Positions 26,597-34,785 of a stretch of DNA of 64,000 nt are shown piece after piece. The DNA is taken from positions 997 through 64,996 of the forward strand of contig CAZTZR010000003.1 in NCBI GenBank assembly GCA_964618145.1, read 5' to 3'. Source of the DNA: an uncultured Kofleriaceae bacterium. Its GTDB lineage: Bacteria > Myxococcota_A > Polyangia > HGW-17. The position numbers were made by a program, and so were the translations under genes. Within the stretch, counting starts at the first letter, position 1. Every line of letters begins with the position of its first letter. The notes beneath the pieces were generated by a model. That model did not search any database and was not told the origin of the DNA. It was given only the letters and a program-made list of their open reading frames with translations.

Positions 26597-26626
26597 TGTG
26601 CTATGGTTTTCCCGGGGAGGAAAGCC

Positions 26627-28510
26627 ATGCGAATCCAATCGTTTCTGAAAATTCTGTTGGTTCTGGGGTGTGTTGTCCTGGTCGGTTGTGATCCTGCGGA
26701 AAAGAACACCAACAACCAGAACAATATCAACAATATCAACAACGTCAACAACATCAATAATCAGAACAACGTCAACAACGTCAACAACGTCAACAACCAG
26801 AACAACCTGTTTTTTGACCGTGATAGCGACGGGGTTCCCGATGACGAAGACAATTGTCCGGATGATTTCAATCCCATGCAGGAAGACTACAACGGGGATG
26901 GTGTGGGGGATGCCTGCACCTTCCAGGATGGCACGGTGCAACATCCGTTCATCATTTCCGTGACCGAAGACGGTGCCATTTACGATGATGCGCAGGACAC
27001 TGCCCAGTCTTCGTCCAGTGTGTTTGATTCCTATCCGCCGAACACCCTGGACCAGAGCGGTCCGGAATATGTGTATGTCATGAGTCTTCCGCGGCGCATG
27101 CAGGTTCATGCATACATTGATCTGCCGGAGCCGCCGGGAGTGGACATTGATGTGCACTTGTTGTCCTCCCTGTCTCCACTGGAGTTGATCGCCCGCAGCA
27201 ATTCGTCGGTCATGGAAACACTGGATGCCGGTTTGTATTACCTCGTGATGGATACGTATGTGTCCAACGGGGTGCCCAAGCCTGGCCCTTATCAGTTGCA
27301 TGTGCGGGCAAGGCCCTGGTACGAGGGCACTGTGGATGACATCATTCCGGTATATGGTTCGAGCATCACCGTGCCGGTTCCGTTGCCGTATGTTTTCGTG
27401 GACATGCGCGACACCTCGGAATCACTGTCCAGTGTGTTTGACTCCTATCCTCCGAACACCGTGAACCAGGAGGGGCCCGAGTATGTTTACGGATTCACGC
27501 TGGACGCGCCTGCCTGGGTGTCCGCAGAAGTGCTTGCACCAGAGCCGGCTGGAGTGGACATCGATGTGCACCTGTTGTCTTCCCTGTCTCCCCTGGAGTT
27601 GATTGCCCGGGGGAACATCCGGGTATGGTCGCGACTGGAACCCGGAACATATTACGTCATTGCCGACACCTACATGAACAATACGGGACCATATAAACTG
27701 ACGGTCTCCTTCCGTTCAGCCGGACTGGAACCGGAAACGCTTTTCAATCCGTACATTCTGGCAGCGGTGGACTACATTGATACGCATTACCGGCTGTTGG
27801 GGTATGACAGCGCCGTTCTGACCCACGATATCGAGTACGGTTCCTTTGGTACCATCCCGGCCACCGGGGGCGCCCGCACCATGTGTGTGGCGGCCGTCAT
27901 GGAGGTGATTCTGGTGGCCATGCAAATATATGAAGCCGAAACCGGCGACTCCACGGTGTGGGATTACCTGCCCATGCGTTCCTTCCAGTTTCTGGGTGCC
28001 AATGATCTCAAAGCACATTTGTGGGTGAACCACGACCTGGATTCCTGGGGAAGCGCGGACGCTGTTCGTCATTTCGGCATGGGCATGAACGTTTCCTTCG
28101 AGAACCTGATCCCGGGTTCCCTGATCAACCTCAACCGTACCACCGGAACGGGGCATGCGGTCATCTTCATTTCATTTATCGATATCGCCGGGAACGAATC
28201 CGACACGTGGCATGACGGAGTCGTAGGTTTCCGCTACTACTCCAGCCAGGGTGGCTTCAACGTCGGTTCCGGCGGCATGGATTACCGCTATGCCGTGTTT
28301 TCCCAGCACGGTTCTCCCACCATGCCCTATCTGCGGGATCTCAACGTCATTTACAGCACTTCCCAGAACTATCTCAACACCGGTGTCATGTACATGCCTT
28401 CGCACTGGCGCTCCACGGCCCGCACCATGGGTGCGAAGAAGAACCTCGATCAACCCGACGTGAGCGTCTTTGACCCCGTCTACTTTGATGGCGTGACCCC
28501 CGGAAATTAA
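26627..28510 (+). CDS. Lipoprotein with poly-Asn linker, thrombospondin-type-3 Ca-binding repeat, two PPC-like repeats and a C-terminal Cys/His domain
   Basis: MRIQSFLKILLVLGCVVLVGC lipobox. NTNNQNNINNINNVNNINNQNNVNNVNN linker. DRDSDGVPDDEDNCPDDFNPMQEDYNGDGVGDAC repeat. Duplicated SSVFDSYPPNT...GVDIDVHLLSSLSPLELIAR module. Confidence 0.8.
   Translation: MRIQSFLKILLVLGCVVLVGCDPAEKNTNNQNNINNINNVNNINNQNNVNNVNNVNNQNNLFFDRDSDGVPDDEDNCPDDFNPMQEDYNGDGVGDACTFQDGTVQHPFIISVTEDGAIYDDAQDTAQSSSSVFDSYPPNTLDQSGPEYVYVMSLPRRMQVHAYIDLPEPPGVDIDVHLLSSLSPLELIARSNSSVMETLDAGLYYLVMDTYVSNGVPKPGPYQLHVRARPWYEGTVDDIIPVYGSSITVPVPLPYVFVDMRDTSESLSSVFDSYPPNTVNQEGPEYVYGFTLDAPAWVSAEVLAPEPAGVDIDVHLLSSLSPLELIARGNIRVWSRLEPGTYYVIADTYMNNTGPYKLTVSFRSAGLEPETLFNPYILAAVDYIDTHYRLLGYDSAVLTHDIEYGSFGTIPATGGARTMCVAAVMEVILVAMQIYEAETGDSTVWDYLPMRSFQFLGANDLKAHLWVNHDLDSWGSADAVRHFGMGMNVSFENLIPGSLINLNRTTGTGHAVIFISFIDIAGNESDTWHDGVVGFRYYSSQGGFNVGSGGMDYRYAVFSQHGSPTMPYLRDLNVIYSTSQNYLNTGVMYMPSHWRSTARTMGAKKNLDQPDVSVFDPVYFDGVTPGN
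26700..26815. repeat. (AAC AAC RTC)n coding microsatellite
   Basis: aacaatatcaacaatatcaacaacgtcaacaacatcaat... Confidence 0.7.
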
Positions 28511-28581
28511 ACCCATCCGACCGACCTCGTCACCTTTGATGGGGTGACCGGGTTTGCCGGGTTTGCCGGGGTTGGATGGGT

Positions 28582-29271
28582 TCAGTACAGGGGGAAACTG
28601 TCTGGATTGGGAAGGTTTCCGGCCTGGGACTGGGCCTCCAGCAGAGGTGCCAGAAGTTGATCATAACAAGAGGGTTCGCAGGTTTCCTTCACAAAGGCGA
28701 GCAGGGTCTGGGCGGCCCGGTCCAGGGGGCGGGTGGCCCGCAAAAGGGAAACTCCCTGACTTTCCCGGGCGGTGACACGTTTTTCCATCAGGGTATCAAA
28801 CTGGTTCTGCATCTCTTCAAGACGGTTCACGAAAGGCAGCAGATGGAACTTTTTCAGCCATTCCATCTGTTCGTCTTCCTGAAGCCACACCAGGCGATGA
28901 TACAGAACGGTGATGTCGCTGAGCAGCGATCCGGTGATGAAGTCGATGGGGTGCAGTTTCTGCAGGATGCCCTTTGCAGGTTCACGGTCTTCGTTGGATT
29001 CCGGGCACAGGATATGGGCCTGCAATACCATGATGATGGCGCGATAGGCGTCATCACGCTGTTTTTGTACACTCTCCAGTTCCTTCATGTACAAATCCTG
29101 CTCGGTGGGGGTGTCCAGGATCATCCTGAGTTCAGACACGCGTTCTTCCAGTTGGTCCGCCAGCAGGTTGGCCGCTGTATTGTTTGCGCATTGATCCCTG
29201 ACCATCCGGATCATCTTTTCAATTGCAGGTATTTTCAGTTCGGGGGGTATCACTCCCATGTGCAGTGTCAT
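28582..29271 (-). CDS. Hypothetical helical protein, last gene of the rSAM operon
   Basis: Start MTLHMG at 29271 with GGAGGA 6 nt upstream. The antisense plus-strand ORF is Gly/His-rich and not protein-like. Confidence 0.55.
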   Translation of the reverse strand: MTLHMGVIPPELKIPAIEKMIRMVRDQCANNTAANLLADQLEERVSELRMILDTPTEQDLYMKELESVQKQRDDAYRAIIMVLQAHILCPESNEDREPAKGILQKLHPIDFITGSLLSDITVLYHRLVWLQEDEQMEWLKKFHLLPFVNRLEEMQNQFDTLMEKRVTARESQGVSLLRATRPLDRAAQTLLAFVKETCEPSCYDQLLAPLLEAQSQAGNLPNPDSFPLY

Positions 29272-29391
29272 TGGTTCCTCCGCAGGGTGGTTTGTCATAC
29301 CGTGGTCACGAAACGCCACACCATTGAACAATTCCGGATGCTATCAGATTTCAAAAAGAAATGAAATTGGTTTGTGCAACAAGTCCATCCA

Positions 29392-30441
29392 TCACCGGGG
29401 CGACAGATCCTGAATGTCCTGTATCAGTCGGCTGCTTTGGATGGCCCGCATGCAAAAGGGGTTTTCTCCAAAGGAATCGCCATTGCCCGCTGCCATGGCG
29501 GTACATCCGGCCCGGCAGGTTTCCGCCATGGCACAGGAGGCACATACACCGGTGAGAAGTCCTGATTTGTTCCGGAAACGGGCAAATGCACCATCGTCCT
29601 TCCACAGGTCCCCCAGTCGCCGGGTCCGCAGGTCTCCGCAAACGAACTCGTCTCCCAGGGACAGACACGGCAGGACTTCTCCGTTGGATCGGATGCCGAT
29701 GACATGGATGCCGGCCATGCATCCGCGCCAGCGTCCGTGGATATGCGGCAGTTCCCCGCCAAGGGGGTGATATCCGAAATCGTCCATGGGACAGATCCAG
29801 ACCTCCGGATCCGACCGCAGGACCCGGGTCACCTTGTTGCAGAATTGTTCATATTCCCGGACATCCAAAGACCAGTCAGCAGCAAAGCGCTCCCCCGTGG
29901 GATTGGCGACCTGCACCTGCCAGGTGATGCCGGAGCCGCGCAGCAGGTCACAAAAAGCGTCAAACTCATGGAAGTTCAGACGGCAGAATGTGGTGATGGC
30001 GTTGACGCGGGGATGTCCGGTGGCCACCAGTCTGTTCAGCAGTTCCATGACACGGTCGAATCCATCCACCCGCCGCATTCGCTGCATGGTCTCCGGGTTC
30101 GTTCCGTCCAGGGAAACCCCGATAATGTGGGGGTTCACATCCACAAAGGTGTCGAACACACGATCATCCACCATCAACCCGTTGGTGATGATGACCAGTC
30201 GCATACCCAGCCGCCCCACCTCGCGGGCGATGGTTTCCCATCCAGGATGCAGTAGAAGTTCCCCGCCAATCAGGGTGATTTCCTCGCCCCCCAGGTCCGC
30301 GAGTTCCCCAAGAACCGACAGCCATCGATCGGTGCTGAATTCCCCTTCCCGGGGTGGCCCCGAGTTGGAAGCGCAATGGACGCAGCGCAGGTTGCACCGG
30401 TTCGTCAATTCCAGGACGGCATATTTCAGCGGGGTTGTCAT
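29392..30441 (-). CDS. Radical SAM/SPASM-domain maturase-like enzyme 1 (anSME/PqqE-type architecture)
   Basis: CNLRCVHC at residues 16-23. C-terminal SPASM cysteines CASCAMAETCRAGC. No N-terminal RRE extension. Confidence 0.85.
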   Translation of the reverse strand: MTTPLKYAVLELTNRCNLRCVHCASNSGPPREGEFSTDRWLSVLGELADLGGEEITLIGGELLLHPGWETIAREVGRLGMRLVIITNGLMVDDRVFDTFVDVNPHIIGVSLDGTNPETMQRMRRVDGFDRVMELLNRLVATGHPRVNAITTFCRLNFHEFDAFCDLLRGSGITWQVQVANPTGERFAADWSLDVREYEQFCNKVTRVLRSDPEVWICPMDDFGYHPLGGELPHIHGRWRGCMAGIHVIGIRSNGEVLPCLSLGDEFVCGDLRTRRLGDLWKDDGAFARFRNKSGLLTGVCASCAMAETCRAGCTAMAAGNGDSFGENPFCMRAIQSSRLIQDIQDLSPR

Positions 30442-31574
30442 GGCAGCTCCAAAAGTGCTTCCAGAAGTTCCCGCCGCTCCAGACGGTGGTAGCAGTATTC
30501 GTTTTCAAGCCGGTTCTGGCACATGGTCAGCAGGATGTCCGGGCATCCCCCGTGACACGAAGGGGCATGGGGACATTCCCCGCATACACCTTCCAGATGA
30601 TCCGCGTGGAGCCAGGAAAGGTTTTCCCGGCAGCGTTCCTCTTCGAGGATGCGCGCAAGACCCCCCGGATCGCGAATGTTTCCCACCACGTTTTCGGGAA
30701 GGGCAAGTGCCGAACACGGGGTGACATCGCCGTTTGCCCGAACGAACAGATTCAGGATGCCTCCCGTGCAGCGTTTTTGCCAGGTGCGGGCCAGAAGGCT
30801 CAGTGGATGCCGGTTCGAGCAGGTAACCAGATCGTCCATGGGAACAATCCGGTGGGGATGCTTTTCGAAAAACCCGGCCACCTGCAAACCCAGTTCGTAG
30901 TATTCTTCAGGTGAAAGGATCAGATCCCTGCCGGCCCGGCCCTTGGCGGAAACCATCTGTACCTGCAGGGTCAGGTTTTCCCGCAGGGCCCAGTCCCACA
31001 ATGCGGGAAGTTCCCCGACGTTGATCCTCGAAAAGGCACTGATGATGCTCACGGGTACCCCGGCTTCCCGCAAAAGACGGATCCCCTCCATGGTGGCGGC
31101 GTGCATCCCGGGGCCCCGGATGGCATCATGTACCTGCGGGTCCATGCCGTCCACGCTGACAGTGGCCAGGATCACTCCGGCGTTTTTCCATGCCCGGGCG
31201 GTGGAGGCATCCACCAGGGTGGCGCTGGTGACCAGCCGAACGGGAAAACCTGCTTCCCGACCGGCGGCCAGAATCCCTTCCAGATCCGGTCGGCAGCAGA
31301 CTTCTCCCCCGGTCAGCGACAACTCCTGCATCCCGGCCTGCCGTGCATCCGACAAAAGGGAGCGGATTTCCTCCAGGGTCAATTCTGCGGTTCCATGCGC
31401 ATCCGGTCCCGCATCCACGTAGCAGTGGGGACAGGACAGGTTGCAGCGCCAGGTGATCTCCAGTTCAAGAATGTAGGGATGACGACAGGAAAATTCCCGG
31501 CCACCGGAGGAATGAAAATACCGGAATCCGTCGCCACTCCGGCGAACCCGGACACCGTCATGCGTGTGACTCAT
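30438..31574 (-). CDS. Radical SAM/SPASM-domain maturase-like enzyme 2
   Basis: CNLSCPHC; SPASM CGECPHAPSCHGGCPD. Stop/start overlap (ATGA) with enzyme 1. Confidence 0.85.
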   Translation of the reverse strand: MSHTHDGVRVRRSGDGFRYFHSSGGREFSCRHPYILELEITWRCNLSCPHCYVDAGPDAHGTAELTLEEIRSLLSDARQAGMQELSLTGGEVCCRPDLEGILAAGREAGFPVRLVTSATLVDASTARAWKNAGVILATVSVDGMDPQVHDAIRGPGMHAATMEGIRLLREAGVPVSIISAFSRINVGELPALWDWALRENLTLQVQMVSAKGRAGRDLILSPEEYYELGLQVAGFFEKHPHRIVPMDDLVTCSNRHPLSLLARTWQKRCTGGILNLFVRANGDVTPCSALALPENVVGNIRDPGGLARILEEERCRENLSWLHADHLEGVCGECPHAPSCHGGCPDILLTMCQNRLENEYCYHRLERRELLEALLELP

Positions 31575-31591
31575 GGATGGTTTCCCGAAAA

Positions 31592-32290
31592 CTAAAAACG
31601 TCCACCGCCGCCATACTTGGTATGCACGCGCGGTGGCTCATCTCTGGGAGCGGGTTTCATGGGCTTGGCAGGAGGCGCCATACCGTCTTCTTCATCCTCG
31701 AAAGGGGACGGGGCCATGGGGGGTCTGACACCTGCGCTGTACCGGTGCTTGGAATAGACCTCTTCCCCGTCCTCTCCGAAAGTGTTCTCCAGATTGGAAT
31801 CCGTCTTTGCTTCCGGTTCTGTCTGAACCTTTCCAGGGGGTTCCGCCTCTTCGGACACTGATTCCGTGTCCCCTTGGGACGACGGCAGGGTGGCAGCTTT
31901 TTCCCTGGGACCGCACCCGGAGGAGGCCAGGGTGACCGCAGTGGCCATCACGGCCACGGAGCCGGAGAAACGCAGAAACATGGACCAGAGTTTCTGGAGG
32001 CGGGGGGATGACTCCCGTTCCATGCGGTTCTTCTGGTGCAAAAAGACCCGTTCGAAGGTCTTGCGGTCCCCGGCCAGAAGCGAACCCAGTCCGTACTGCA
32101 ACTGGGCTTCGGTGTTGCCCGGGTCCAGTTGCGTGGCCTGTTCGAAGCATTCAACCGCATGGGCTGTCCGGCCTTCGGCCAGGGCCATGCGTCCCTTTTC
32201 CATCCAGTCTTGTGTTGTCATGTGGGGCACCTCCTTCGGGTACGAAGGAATTGTACGGGAGGTTTCAGAGTTTGTCCAGCACCTGTTCAC
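31592..32290 (-). CDS. TPR-like N-domain / single-TM / acidic Pro-rich C-tail protein ending KYGGGGRF
   Basis: TPR-like start MTTQDWMEKGRMALAEGRTAHAVECFEQATQLDPGNTEAQ; TM segment LWSMFLRFSGSVAVMATAVTLA. 18 nt upstream of rSAM enzyme 2. True start may be ATG 32221. Confidence 0.6.
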   Translation of the reverse strand: MNRCWTNSETSRTIPSYPKEVPHMTTQDWMEKGRMALAEGRTAHAVECFEQATQLDPGNTEAQLQYGLGSLLAGDRKTFERVFLHQKNRMERESSPRLQKLWSMFLRFSGSVAVMATAVTLASSGCGPREKAATLPSSQGDTESVSEEAEPPGKVQTEPEAKTDSNLENTFGEDGEEVYSKHRYSAGVRPPMAPSPFEDEEDGMAPPAKPMKPAPRDEPPRVHTKYGGGGRF

Positions 32291-32777
32291 AGAGATCCTC
32301 CACCTTGGGATCCTGGAACTTCATTTTGATGGTCTGGCAGCGTATGCGCAGCACCCGCGGCATGTAAGGCTTTTTCCCGCTGTCAAGGTTTTCGGCAATG
32401 CGTTTGAGCAGTCGAATCACCAAAGGCAGGGAATTGATTTCCAGAGCCCGTTCCAGAAACTCCATGTCCGAAGGCAGGGATTCGTTTTCTTCCAGGATTT
32501 GGCGCGCCTGTTTCAGGAAATCACCGGGGTCTTCGATGCGAAGACATGCCTTCACCATGGCGGCCAGGCTTTTGTCCGAAGAACTCTGGATGCTTTTTTC
32601 CTCTTCGGACTTGCGAACCATCTGGGCCAGTTTTTCGGACGAAAACAATTTGTCCACATCCGCTTTGGAAACCCGCATGTGGGAATTGCGTCCGGATTCG
32701 GGGCGTTCGGAGCGGCGCCCGGAACCACTCCGGTCCTTGCGTGCATCGATTTCCTTCCAAGTGGGTTTGTCAGGCAT
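32265..32777 (-). CDS. Hypothetical protein
   Basis: Protein-like ORF in the same operon. Overlaps the TerB-like stop by 8 nt. Confidence 0.5.
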   Translation of the reverse strand: MPDKPTWKEIDARKDRSGSGRRSERPESGRNSHMRVSKADVDKLFSSEKLAQMVRKSEEEKSIQSSSDKSLAAMVKACLRIEDPGDFLKQARQILEENESLPSDMEFLERALEINSLPLVIRLLKRIAENLDSGKKPYMPRVLRIRCQTIKMKFQDPKVEDLCEQVLDKL

Positions 32778-33345
32778 TTTGCTCCGGTCCGGGTTCCGGC
32801 TGCCCGTGCAGCACCATCACGGCATTGTAAACTTCCTGGTTCAGAAAGATGGCCATCTGTTCGGATACCTCGAACCGCCGGGCCATTTCCTTTGCAAACT
32901 CGGGATGGAGGAAATTCTGGTTCAGCACGAAATGGAACACGGAGCGACGATACAGGTAAGCCCGGACTGCGGATTCCAGTTCCTCCACCGTTTCACCCGG
33001 AAGCAGATCCCTGGTCAGATCCTTCAGGAGGTTCTTTTCCGCGTCCGAGAAATTCTCGTCGGCATAGGCTATCATGTACAAAAAGGCCAGATAGGTGGCC
33101 TTGTTGTCATTCGATGAAAGGGTGTCCAGTTCCGAGCGGTCCAGGGGCTTCCAGTCCTTCAGGAGTTCGGGAAAATCCAGCCCGGGAAAGAACTCCGTCA
33201 CGACCTGCTGAAGGAATTCCTTCTCGCGCGGATCCATGTCTTCTCCGTCCGCCTTGGCCATCTGGACGATTCCGCGGAAAATGATCTGCTTTTCCGCCGG
33301 GGTCAGTTCGTTTGCGCGCAGAAGTTGTTCGATTTCCATAGCCAT
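32770..33345 (-). CDS. TerB-like (tellurite-resistance TerB/DUF533-like) protein
   Basis: QIIFRGIVQMAKADGEDMDPREKEFL and FLYMIAYADENFSDAEKNLL repeats. Confidence 0.55.
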   Translation of the reverse strand: MAMEIEQLLRANELTPAEKQIIFRGIVQMAKADGEDMDPREKEFLQQVVTEFFPGLDFPELLKDWKPLDRSELDTLSSNDNKATYLAFLYMIAYADENFSDAEKNLLKDLTRDLLPGETVEELESAVRAYLYRRSVFHFVLNQNFLHPEFAKEMARRFEVSEQMAIFLNQEVYNAVMVLHGQPEPGPEQNA

Positions 33346-33348
33346 GAT

Positions 33349-33729
33349 TCACCTCTTCTCTTCCATCTTTTTCAGGTATTCCTGGAGCAGTTTGTGTTCC
33401 TTCATGCCCACATTGCTGAATCGGATGCCGATTTCGTGGTCCGGCGCACCCTTGACCCAGACAATTTCGCCCTTGACTTCAATGACGGCGTCCAGATCCG
33501 GAAACGTGACAACCAGATCCACGGGAGTTCCCACTTCTTCCGGTTCCGAAGTGGCCAGGCGCATTCCCCCGAGACTCAGGTCGGTGATGCGGTGGTTGAG
33601 AAGGAATTCCCTGCCCGTGTAATCGACAAAGGCTTCAAGTTCGAATCGTTTGTGACGTCGTTTGTCCCGGGTGCTCATGGATGTACAAGGCCCTTTCTGA
33701 AAAAACCTGTTCCAATTCTGGACCGGCAT
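33349..33729 (-). CDS. PilZ-domain c-di-GMP receptor
   Basis: RRHKRFELEAFV (RxxxR) and ITDLSLGGMRL (DxSxGG). Likely start at MSTRDK around 33678. Confidence 0.75.
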   Translation of the reverse strand: MPVQNWNRFFQKGPCTSMSTRDKRRHKRFELEAFVDYTGREFLLNHRITDLSLGGMRLATSEPEEVGTPVDLVVTFPDLDAVIEVKGEIVWVKGAPDHEIGIRFSNVGMKEHKLLQEYLKKMEEKR

Positions 33730-33790
33730 CAGCGTAAAAGAGCCTTGGCATCACGTCAAGGCGAAAATGTGGGAAATGGAGAAAAGAAAA

Positions 33791-34513
33791 CTACTTGCCG
33801 GATGGTTTGCTGTCGCCGGCCTGAAGGACCTGTACTCCCTTGGGGGGAGTGAAGGTGAAAATCCGGTCGGCAATGGGCTTGTTCAATACAATGTTGGAAA
33901 ACGTGATGCGGTTGCGGTTCCCCTCCGAATCAAAGACAATACTGGACACCACGGCCCCCTGTTCGTTGACGATGAACAGCACGGAAGTGAAGTGGGGGGA
34001 AGATTTTTTCGGCAAAAGTTTGATGGCCTTTTGTCCCTTTCCGGCGAATTTGCTCTTGTCGATGATTTTGACGTGGAAGTCATCGACAAGTTTTCCTTTT
34101 CCCCAGAGGAACTTGACCGGAGTGGGCAATCCGCTGTCCTTGATGTCATGCCACATGGCCTGCTTGCTGGAAGGTTCGTACATCCATGCCTTTTTGCCGT
34201 CAATCAGGAAGAGTTTCTTTTCCGGCTTCAGGTAATCCCAGGTCATGAACCCGGGTTTTTTGACGTAGATTTTTCCGCTTTCCGCCGGTTGGTCGCCATG
34301 AAAACGCTTGGTAAATACCTGGGAAAAATCCGCCTGGAAGGTGGTGATCTTGTCGTAATAAGCCTGGGTGACAGCCATGGCGGCCAGGGATTCCTTGCTG
34401 TTGTAGGTACCCAGATCCTCTTGGGGAGCGGCCGGTTTGGCGGCCGGTTTGGCGGGAGGTTTCCCCTGCATGAGCAACGTCATCGTCAAAATGGTGGAAA
34501 CGAACAATTGCAT
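33791..34513 (-). CDS. LolA-like outer-membrane lipoprotein carrier protein
   Basis: Signal peptide; FQADFSQVFTKRF...GKIYVKKPGFMTWDY motifs of the LolA family. Confidence 0.75.
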   Translation of the reverse strand: MQLFVSTILTMTLLMQGKPPAKPAAKPAAPQEDLGTYNSKESLAAMAVTQAYYDKITTFQADFSQVFTKRFHGDQPAESGKIYVKKPGFMTWDYLKPEKKLFLIDGKKAWMYEPSSKQAMWHDIKDSGLPTPVKFLWGKGKLVDDFHVKIIDKSKFAGKGQKAIKLLPKKSSPHFTSVLFIVNEQGAVVSSIVFDSEGNRNRITFSNIVLNKPIADRIFTFTPPKGVQVLQAGDSKPSGK

Positions 34514-34785
34514 GGATATCCTCCTGAACCGGCTTTGTGATTATTGGAACCGGTTGTCGGTGAGGCGGCCTGACGAAAACGGAGGCGGCCACAAGCCCTC
34601 ATACGCCCGATCGGGGCAATTTATTCTCCGAGGTCGGAATGCAGACAATTCCGTGTGCGGAGAGTCGGAAACTAGCATGGGCGAACCTTGCCGGCAAGCT
34701 GATGTTTGGGTCACAAATCGGGAGAAACAGGTTGATGAAACCCGGGAATCTGTGATATGACCATAAACCGTTCAGGAGGAATCCG

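Follow-up and report, generated by a model that had tools for sequence, protein, structure and literature searches.

Radical S-adenosylmethionine (rSAM) enzymes with a SPASM domain have repeatedly been a source of new peptide chemistry, and most were found through the association of an enzyme with a motif. Some paired systems have been defined by genomics, such as HxsB and HxsC with their His-Xaa-Ser repeat protein and the "rSAM with lipoprotein" families TIGR04133/4, and the substrates of anaerobic sulfatase-maturating enzymes (anSMEs) are exported after being modified in the cytoplasm. PqqE joins the gamma carbon of Glu to Tyr, and RrrB joins the gamma carbon of Arg to Tyr, in both cases by a C-C bond at the ortho position of Tyr (PMC9389541). 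Spliceases target the Tyr of an X-Y-G motif, can act on proteins, and are activated by a leader helix (PMC11414181; PMC11626197). Here, we describe three adjacent genes in a 64,000-nucleotide stretch of DNA from an uncultured Kofleriaceae bacterium (contig CAZTZR010000003.1, positions 997 to 64,996; hereafter the window, in whose own numbering positions are given): a candidate substrate gene and two rSAM/SPASM genes, rSAM1 and rSAM2. We judge it reasonably probable that they constitute one conserved maturation cassette, composed of a dedicated substrate and a pair of paralogous rSAM/SPASM enzymes whose genes are translationally coupled. Enzymes of this kind are already known to mature ribosomal products; the architecture of the precursor is what is unusual here.

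The product of the candidate substrate gene (31592-32221, minus strand) has a TPR-like N-domain, then a hydrophobic segment, and lastly a disordered tail; the gene is followed on the same strand by rSAM1 (30438-31574, 378 amino acids [aa]) and rSAM2 (29392-30441, 349 aa). The preliminary description of this region had reported a pair of rSAM/SPASM genes overlapping by ATGA. This pair is present as described, with the start of rSAM2 overlapping the stop of rSAM1, and both products match the Pfam Radical_SAM and SPASM families (PF04055 at 83.9 bits for rSAM1 and 94.7 bits for rSAM2; PF13186 above the gathering threshold in both). The upstream protein had been given as 232 aa. An open reading frame (ORF) of that length exists, beginning at a GTG and reaching 32290, but the likely start is the ATG at 32221, which is preceded by GGAGG, yields 209 aa and coincides with the public gene calls. 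Similarly, gaps of 0-60 nt had been claimed throughout; those on either side of rSAM1 are short (17 nt and -4 nt), but the gap 3' of rSAM2 is 120 nt by the public gene calls. Because the gaps of 17 nt and -4 nt leave no intergenic space within the unit, and only out-of-frame overlapping ORFs are present, we rejected a separate small precursor, which had earlier been offered as an alternative substrate in the form of an ORF of fewer than 60 residues.

The substrate gene, rSAM1 and rSAM2 form the conserved unit, which was previously unannotated and occurs in several phyla. About 16 independent loci of the three-gene cassette were found, in Myxococcota, Planctomycetota/Phycisphaerae and Desulfuromonas-type metagenome-assembled genomes (MAGs), and every family member seen derives from MAGs or metagenomes. 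The rSAM1 ortholog family is sharply bounded, with approximately 92 clusters at 44-72% identity followed by a fall to E 1e-31, and its source names comprise Myxococcota, Polyangiaceae, Planctomycetes, Phycisphaerae, Desulfuromonadaceae and "Deltaproteobacteria" MAGs. The rSAM2 family is bigger: over 120 clusters lie below E 1e-94. The two enzymes share approximately 30% identity with each other and 45-70% inside each ortholog group. In three mutually distant loci (L001, L003 and L005), a gene for a 215-323-aa protein is followed by rSAM1 and then rSAM2, and four further genome loci (L007-L010) have the same order. The genome scan from the rSAM1 alignment used the generic pattern CNLxCxHCY, and at least four true orthologs are among the 80 loci listed. 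A reverse scan of metagenomes for LLx[LV]GICHLL, a pattern of the substrate N-domain, gave 11 loci. Six of them have full rSAM1 and rSAM2 orthologs directly downstream; the short contigs L099 and L101 end inside rSAM1. L107 and L108 are two additional tandem loci. In every cassette locus examined, a substrate-family gene lies directly upstream of the rSAM gene or genes. No other conserved neighbor fit to be a substrate was seen in any locus examined, and no Pfam-recognizable protease or (ABC) exporter recurs in the gene tables of these neighborhoods. Thus, the co-occurrence that the preliminary description had singled out for checking is found in related genomes for the three-gene cassette, across phyla, and the upstream flanking genes are clade-specific.

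The metagenomic loci also contain irregular members. In L092, rSAM1 is an in-frame remnant (1440-1700) in which the first approximately 52 residues, up to CNLRCVHCY, are fused to a C-terminal ...HRVEQRRIL; the substrate gene, with two type-A motifs (see below), and rSAM2 are intact beside it, and the remnant could be a genuine deletion or the result of a collapsed assembly. In L101, the substrate ORF (421-723) ends just past the N-domain motif (...LGICHLLN*), and rSAM1 lies approximately 400 nt further on. A frameshift or a pseudogene is possible on this low-coverage contig.

The comparative data strongly favor the upstream protein as the likely substrate of the rSAM pair, because its adjacency to the enzymes is conserved and because its otherwise hypervariable tail contains a conserved motif. 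The preliminary description had proposed the tail of this protein as a substrate and had described it as acidic and Pro-rich, ending in KYGGGGRF, and both points agree with our analysis: the tail has a net charge of -8 and 15% Pro, and ends as stated. Its core motif, of a form we term type A, is VYSKHRYSAGVRPP (31718-31759, minus strand; aa 155-168), which includes SKHRYSAGVRPP (aa 157-168), and a type-B-like motif, VHTKYGGGGRF, forms the C-terminus (31595-31627, minus strand; aa 199-209). From 122 unique instances, the type-A logo is P-x-S-[AS]-H-[RK]-Y-S-G-G-V-[YF]-x-P. The Tyr was fixed by the search pattern; His occupies position -2 in 111 of the 122 instances, Gly position +3 in 116, and Ser directly follows the Tyr in 104. 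Each tail has one to four copies of the motif, usually two, and the remainder of the tail is hypervariable. Three of the closest relatives (P0136, P0137 and P0193) have a type-A motif identical to that of the window, and the window's closest relatives end in ...TKYGVQMRYGGGLR..., with C-terminal variants among relatives including TKYGGG[AG][FY], KYGV and RYGGG.

A word-indexed profile search for substrates found 17 proteins, and an exhaustive search of 1.84 billion representatives gave 58 matches below 1e-30; past an E value of approximately 1e-25 the latter was contaminated by generic multi-TPR proteins. The exhaustive search defined two more motif forms: type B, [RK]-Y-G-[VA]-x-[RK]-P, whose repeats also comprise RYRV, KYRV and KYKV, and type C, [KT]-R-Y-[IV]-A-[IV]-H. 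A basic residue followed by Tyr is the sole universal feature of the tails. At least one [RK]Y is present in the tail of 89 of 97 family-like representatives, and 197 [RK]Y dipeptides were observed compared to 55.8 +/- 6.9 in shuffled sequences (maximum of 79 in 1000 shuffles), a 3.5-fold enrichment. Family-wide, the median distance between the final [RK]Y and the C-terminus is 13 residues. The substrate evolves far faster than the rSAM enzymes, with the motif retained: between the window and its close relative L087, identity is 40% for the substrate, 69% for rSAM1 and 64% for rSAM2, and the motif is nonetheless kept. Our analysis delimits the substrate family and the two enzyme families and gives a sharp motif of 10 residues, and we found no description of the cassette in Pfam, NCBIfam or the searchable literature, nor the motif strings in that literature. 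These repeated basic-Tyr motifs, the lipobox-like Cys and the single-enzyme versions of the cassette described below go beyond the preliminary description.

All members of the substrate family share an architecture in which a TPR-like N-domain of approximately 70 aa is linked through a short hydrophobic segment to a disordered tail that is hypervariable. In the window, the N-terminal four-helix, two-repeat TPR-like domain (32015-32221, minus strand; aa 1-69) is predicted by AlphaFold2 with a per-residue confidence (pLDDT) of 92-97 and helices at residues 3-15, 19-32, 37-49 and 53-69, and the tail is modeled as disordered. Its best fold matches are consensus and peptide-binding two-repeat TPRs, all weak (E 3e-3 or worse); Pfam gave weak, sub-threshold TPR matches, and NCBIfam gave none. 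This domain is the only globular part that is conserved family-wide. The hydrophobic segment FLRFSGSVAVMATAVTLASSGC (31913-31978, minus strand; aa 82-103) ends in a lipobox-like SSG-C. Its Kyte-Doolittle maximum over 15 residues is 1.66 and it is preceded by positive charges, and it appears signal-peptide-like rather than like a long transmembrane helix. Across the family the segment spans 13-17 aa and is rich in Ala, Gly, Thr and Val. The lipobox pattern [LVI][ASTVI][GAS]C was assigned at the end of the uncharged hydrophobic stretch in the window (...AVTLASSG-C103), and a PS51257-like lipobox core, with the position rule ignored, occurs in 56 of 91 motif-bearing members, the Cys having a median position of 108. 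An N-terminal signal peptide would have this Cys in the first approximately 35 residues; here it is Cys103, behind a folded 70-aa domain.

Tail length and composition are fully variable, from the acidic, Pro-rich tail of the window to one with 37% Gly in L003, and Cys accounts for 0.16% of tail residues in the motif-bearing members. Some tails contain additional domains. For example, the substrate of L001 (6033-7004) has ExbD-like hits in two Pfam stretches, and that of L095 (584-2494) has a multi-TPR array of approximately 400 aa. In both, the array or domain has a motif on either side, the first just past the hydrophobic segment, the second at the C-terminus. The charge distribution at the hydrophobic segment and the presence of ExbD-like or TPR domains in some tails argue for a topology in which the N-domain is inside the cytoplasm and the tail outside.

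An alternative interpretation of this architecture is that the upstream protein is a membrane-anchored TPR scaffold or regulator, and that the target of the enzymes, whether peptide, protein or small molecule, is encoded elsewhere. Protein binding is a generic function of TPR domains, the predicted topology would separate the tail from the enzymes, and one rSAM2-type gene, in L104, adjoins a TonB-like protein without the N-domain. A scaffold, however, would have no need for a motif that recurs in one to four copies and is kept across phyla within a hypervariable, disordered tail, nor would its motif type be expected to track the enzyme complement, as it does here, and none of the loci offers another substrate-like neighbor. 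We consider a scaffold unlikely, and favor a role for the upstream protein as the substrate.

Both enzymes contain the CX3CX2C motif of rSAM enzymes and the CX2CX5CX3C motif of SPASM domains. In rSAM1, these are CNLSCPHC (residues 44-51) and CGECPHAPSCHGGC (residues 331-344), and in rSAM2 CNLRCVHC (residues 16-23) and CASCAMAETCRAGC (residues 300-313). The Cys residues of CX3CX2C are invariant in 33 rSAM1 orthologs (C44, C48 and C51) and in 29 rSAM2 orthologs (C16, C20 and C23). In the same 29 proteins, the SPASM Cys residues 241, 259, 300, 303, 309, 313 and 330 of rSAM2 are all invariant, with the arrangement G254-x4-C259; rSAM1 has a complete set as well (C269, C287, C331/334/340/344 and C361, and also C315), in addition to a conserved N-terminal extension of approximately 37 aa. 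In agreement with the preliminary description, neither enzyme has an RRE, the recognition element for peptides that ribosomes make and that are modified after translation: Pfam and NCBIfam searches gave no RRE or PqqD match in either. There is also no room for one, because the rSAM core begins at residue approximately 38 in rSAM1 and approximately 10 in rSAM2, and alignments of the window enzymes to the RRE-bearing maturases StsB and AlbA start only at profile position approximately 100.

Dozens of NCBIfam rSAM/SPASM models match both enzymes at approximately 50-140 bits, and none of the scores is near its curated cut-off. The scores for rSAM1 and rSAM2, respectively, were 127.4 and 138.1 bits with nif11 maturase 3 (TIGR04103; cut-off 725), 123 and 125 bits with AhbD (cut-off 500), 100 and 113 bits with MftC (TIGR03962; cut-off 265), and 94 and 83 bits with PqqE (TIGR02109; cut-off 381). 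With the anSME model (TIGR03942; cut-off 349.45), rSAM2 scored 52.5 bits, and for rSAM1 this family was outside the best 25. Distant orthologs are equally sub-threshold, at 115-167 bits for TIGR04103, and over the window enzymes and orthologs together MftC scores were 99.7-137.8 bits and PqqE scores 79.9-94.3 bits. Based on scores far under the cut-offs, we rejected membership in the anSME, AhbC/D, NirJ, MftC, PqqE, WgkB, GeoRSP, ScmE/F, StsB and TIGR04133 families; for MftC and PqqE, a PqqD-type partner gene (MftB/PqqD) was also absent from the neighborhoods. A defense system was likewise rejected, as PADLOC models gave only generic viperin-type rSAM similarity. For both enzymes, the nearest solved structures by sequence are SkfB, PqqE, SuiB and CteB. 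An AlphaFold2 model of rSAM2 (pLDDT 88.6) has PqqE as its nearest fold, followed by SuiB, SkfB and CteB, and then anSME at ranks 12-22. Since their nearest solved structures and folds are PqqE, SuiB, SkfB and CteB, rSAM1 and rSAM2 appear to be peptide- or protein-maturase-like SPASM enzymes of undefined specificity.

The full SPASM domain without an RRE is an architecture shared with anSME and QhpD, and these enzymes suggest another reading, in which the Ser of Y-S-G-G-V-[R/Y] becomes formylglycine or thioethers are formed on a folded protein. Modification in the cytoplasm followed by export would be a further likeness, anSME is a structural neighbor of the rSAM2 model, and S-A-G-V-R in the window loosely resembles C/S-x-P/A-x-R. 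This reading is close to refuted, and we give it the slightest of chances. The preliminary description had envisaged an uncharacterized rSAM/SPASM maturation system rather than an anSME, and profile classification bears this out, with rSAM2 at 52.5 bits compared to 349 and rSAM1 lacking anSME among its best 25 families. No sulfatase gene adjoins the rSAM genes in any locus examined; instead, the cassette substrate has a dedicated, adjacent gene and a different target motif and residue. An anSME-like reaction at Ser is contradicted by the frequent replacement of this Ser with Gly or Ala next to an invariant Tyr and basic residue, and thioether chemistry is excluded by tails that are virtually free of Cys.

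It is also highly improbable that rSAM1 and rSAM2 are a pair for cofactor biosynthesis like AhbC/AhbD or NirJ1/NirJ2, dedicated to alternative heme or heme d1 synthesis and located beside a membrane protein by chance. Enzymes of these types are likewise paralogous pairs, and AhbD, NirJ, NirJ2 and AhbC are among the better matches, at 84-126 bits; over all models of these pairs, scores were 70-126 bits. Yet all of these scores fall far under the cut-offs of 500-650, the nearest solved folds are peptide maturases, no siroheme, heme (d1) or nir genes were present in any neighborhood examined, and the strict adjacency to a motif protein across phyla would be left unexplained.

Among described systems, PqqE with PqqA and RrrB with RrrA (ryptide) resemble the proposed cassette in that an rSAM/SPASM enzyme acts on a Tyr in a ribosomal precursor, and PqqE is the top structural neighbor of rSAM2. 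With PqqE and RrrB as precedents, the invariant basic-Tyr pair in the cassette substrates invites the idea of a similar Tyr-centered cross-link. The differences are considerable. PqqE scores are only 79.9-94.3 of the required 381 bits, and the cassette has neither a PqqD/RRE component nor a conserved Glu. RrrB closes a 16-membered ring, whereas the basic residue of the cassette motif directly adjoins the Tyr. Substrates of the PqqA and RrrA type are peptides of 20-40 aa, in contrast to cassette substrates of 170-640 aa with a folded leader domain, a signal-like segment and two enzymes to act on them. HxsB/HxsC, ScmE/ScmF and TIGR04133 share with the cassette the concept of paired rSAM enzymes, or an rSAM enzyme and a lipoprotein, near a substrate with a repeated motif, but ScmE, ScmF and TIGR04133 score 68-110 bits against cut-offs of 400-425, and the motif and architecture of the cassette substrate differ from theirs.

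The spliceases (PlpX/RhaX) have a Tyr target in a short motif, protein substrates and a helical leader element in common with the proposed cassette. If the cassette enzymes were splicease-like, a tyramine equivalent would be excised at [RK]-Y-G, leaving alpha-keto-beta-amino acid residues in the tail. TIGR04103, a family that we take to contain spliceases, is the top NCBIfam match of both window enzymes and the first or second match of the rSAM2 orthologs tested, and Y-G is present in type-B motifs and in TKYGGGGRF of the window. Even so, the TIGR04103 scores of 115-167 bits compare with a cut-off of 725, and no Y-protein is found at the cassette. The known splicease motif needs Y-G, but Y-S replaces it in 104 of 122 type-A instances, and the type-B variants RYRV, KYRV and KYKV and the type-C RY[IV]A also lack it. 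Because most sites are Y-S, splicing would fit the Y-G variants and not the dominant form of the motif, and we regard it as quite unlikely that the cassette encodes spliceases.

A comparison of loci suggests different roles for the two enzymes. L102, L105 and L106 lack rSAM1, and the substrate gene, whose product has the architecture described above, is followed by a lone rSAM2 ortholog; the enzyme of a single-enzyme locus is 46% identical to rSAM2 and 30% identical to rSAM1. Because rSAM2 orthologs stand alone beside a substrate in these three loci, rSAM2 appears to be the core maturase and rSAM1 an accessory enzyme found only in tandem loci. The substrates of L102, L105 and L106 have type-B motifs only, for example RKKYGVMKPKYRVMPP...MKYGVRQP, and where the substrate tail of a tandem locus was readable, type A was always present. 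This correlation of tandem loci with type A and of single-enzyme loci with type B is suggestive, and the one- and two-enzyme versions offer a natural comparison for telling two reactions apart. The single-enzyme loci group as one clade when rSAM2 orthologs are placed in a neighbor-joining tree. A further rSAM2-family gene, 48% identical to that of the window, lies in L104 (4002-6050) directly after a gene for a TonB-like protein, which has an N-terminal transmembrane segment, a Pro/Lys-rich linker containing VRRYKKK, a faint TonB_C match and no TPR N-domain.

Based on these features, we propose a path for maturation of the substrate. The cytoplasmic TPR-like domain would serve as a built-in leader that docks the RRE-less enzymes, in place of the usual combination of leader and RRE. 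An enzyme of the rSAM2 type, using a 5'-deoxyadenosyl radical and two auxiliary clusters, would then carry out an oxidative, Tyr-centered modification at each basic-Tyr site; the likeliest outcome, which is a guess, would be that the Tyr and its basic neighbor are cross-linked through a C-C or C-X bond or undergo a backbone rearrangement. A second modification, confined to the H-[RK]-Y-S-G-G-V-[YF] form, would come from rSAM1. After modification, the hydrophobic segment could drive export of the tail by the general Sec machinery, and where the lipobox Cys is present (Cys103 in the window), processing by Lgt and LspA could remove the leader domain. The product would be a lipid-anchored, modified, Pro-rich envelope protein. 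This would be an unusual precursor logic, with a folded TPR leader joined to an internal signal of the lipoprotein type instead of the usual short leader and RRE.

Several points weigh against this proposal. The identity of the substrate is drawn from genomic association and motif conservation, and neither enzyme matched a curated NCBIfam family at its cut-off. The predicted location of the tail is extracytoplasmic, but rSAM enzymes work in the cytoplasm and are sensitive to oxygen; the modification would thus have to come before export, in a protein whose signal-like segment is internal. It is atypical for a lipobox to lie at residue approximately 103 and to follow a folded domain of 70 aa, and the Cys is missing from approximately 40% of the members. 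As to the chemistry, our proposal is a guess, the residue after the Tyr (S, G, A, I/V or R) being too variable for any known reaction. Because the single-enzyme loci form one rSAM2 clade, the correlation between enzyme complement and motif type amounts to approximately one evolutionary event. Finally, a third rSAM2 clade (L104) adjoins a TonB-like protein without the N-domain, and the range of substrates may therefore be wider.

We speculate further, as a long shot, that the cassette represents a new class of ribosomally made envelope lipoproteins, in which the TPR leader recruits RRE-less rSAM enzymes in the cytoplasm, signal peptidase II acts as the leader peptidase, and the modified basic-Tyr sites near the tail ends are covalent envelope anchors or a Tyr-derived redox cofactor made by a new type of Arg/Lys-Tyr reaction. 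Braun's lipoprotein, whose C-terminus is ...TKYRK, would be a functional analogue for the proposed envelope anchor. The spread of the cassette over Myxococcota, Planctomycetota and Desulfuromonas-type bacteria points to a general envelope function and not to a niche antibiotic.

The cassette lies within a run of seven closely packed minus-strand ORFs (28582-33729), all of which are located where the preliminary description had placed them. Upstream of the substrate gene are genes for a 170-aa hypothetical protein without a family match (32265-32777), a TerB-like protein with a weak Pfam TerB match of 31 bits (32770-33345), and a PilZ protein (33349-33678 by the public call, 109 aa, in an ORF extending to 33729; Pfam PilZ, 64.6 bits); downstream is a DUF6261 gene (28582-29271; 229 aa by the public call; Pfam PF19775). 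The PilZ, TerB-like and 170-aa genes are probably co-transcribed with the cassette here, and the earlier view of the locus had included them, together with the downstream gene, in the system. Our comparisons do not support this wider operon. The three upstream genes are syntenic only in the close Myxococcota relatives L087 and L088 (61-84% identity) and were not found in seven distant loci compared, and they are best regarded as lineage-specific neighbors. None of nine loci compared has a DUF6261 homologue, and the gene that comes next in L088 lies on the other strand. Along with LolA, which is also syntenic only in L087 and L088, these genes were rejected as parts of the system because none is conserved past one clade.

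A scan of positions 28300-34700 for promoters and terminators gave matches no more frequent than expected by chance. The lone sigma-70-like match, TGGACA-17-TACAAT (32278-32250, minus strand), is at the end of the 170-aa gene and just before the ATG of the substrate gene, a position compatible with a promoter of the cassette's own; the count of such matches is below chance expectation, and we do not rely on it. On the opposite strand, a 472-aa ORF (31866-33284, plus strand) overlaps the substrate, 170-aa and TerB-like genes in antisense orientation. Its translation gave no family signal and is rich in Arg, Pro and Gly, as is typical of a spurious ORF in GC-rich DNA.

The LolA homologue (33791-34513, minus strand; 129 bits compared to a cut-off of 112) adjoins the block of PilZ, TerB-like, 170-aa and cassette genes on its upstream side. 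The same adjacency is seen in L087 and L088, where the genes beyond LolA differ, and it may be coincidental synteny or may be tied to the lipobox-bearing substrate. On the other side of the block, a predicted lipoprotein of 635 aa (LVGC; 26603-28510, plus strand) contains an Asn-rich (NNxNN)n stretch, which a 9/27/36-nt tandem repeat at 26710-26806 encodes, as well as a thrombospondin-type-3-like Asp-rich motif and two internal repeats of approximately 180 aa (SSVFDSYPPNT...GPEYVY...DIDVHLLSSLSPLELIAR).

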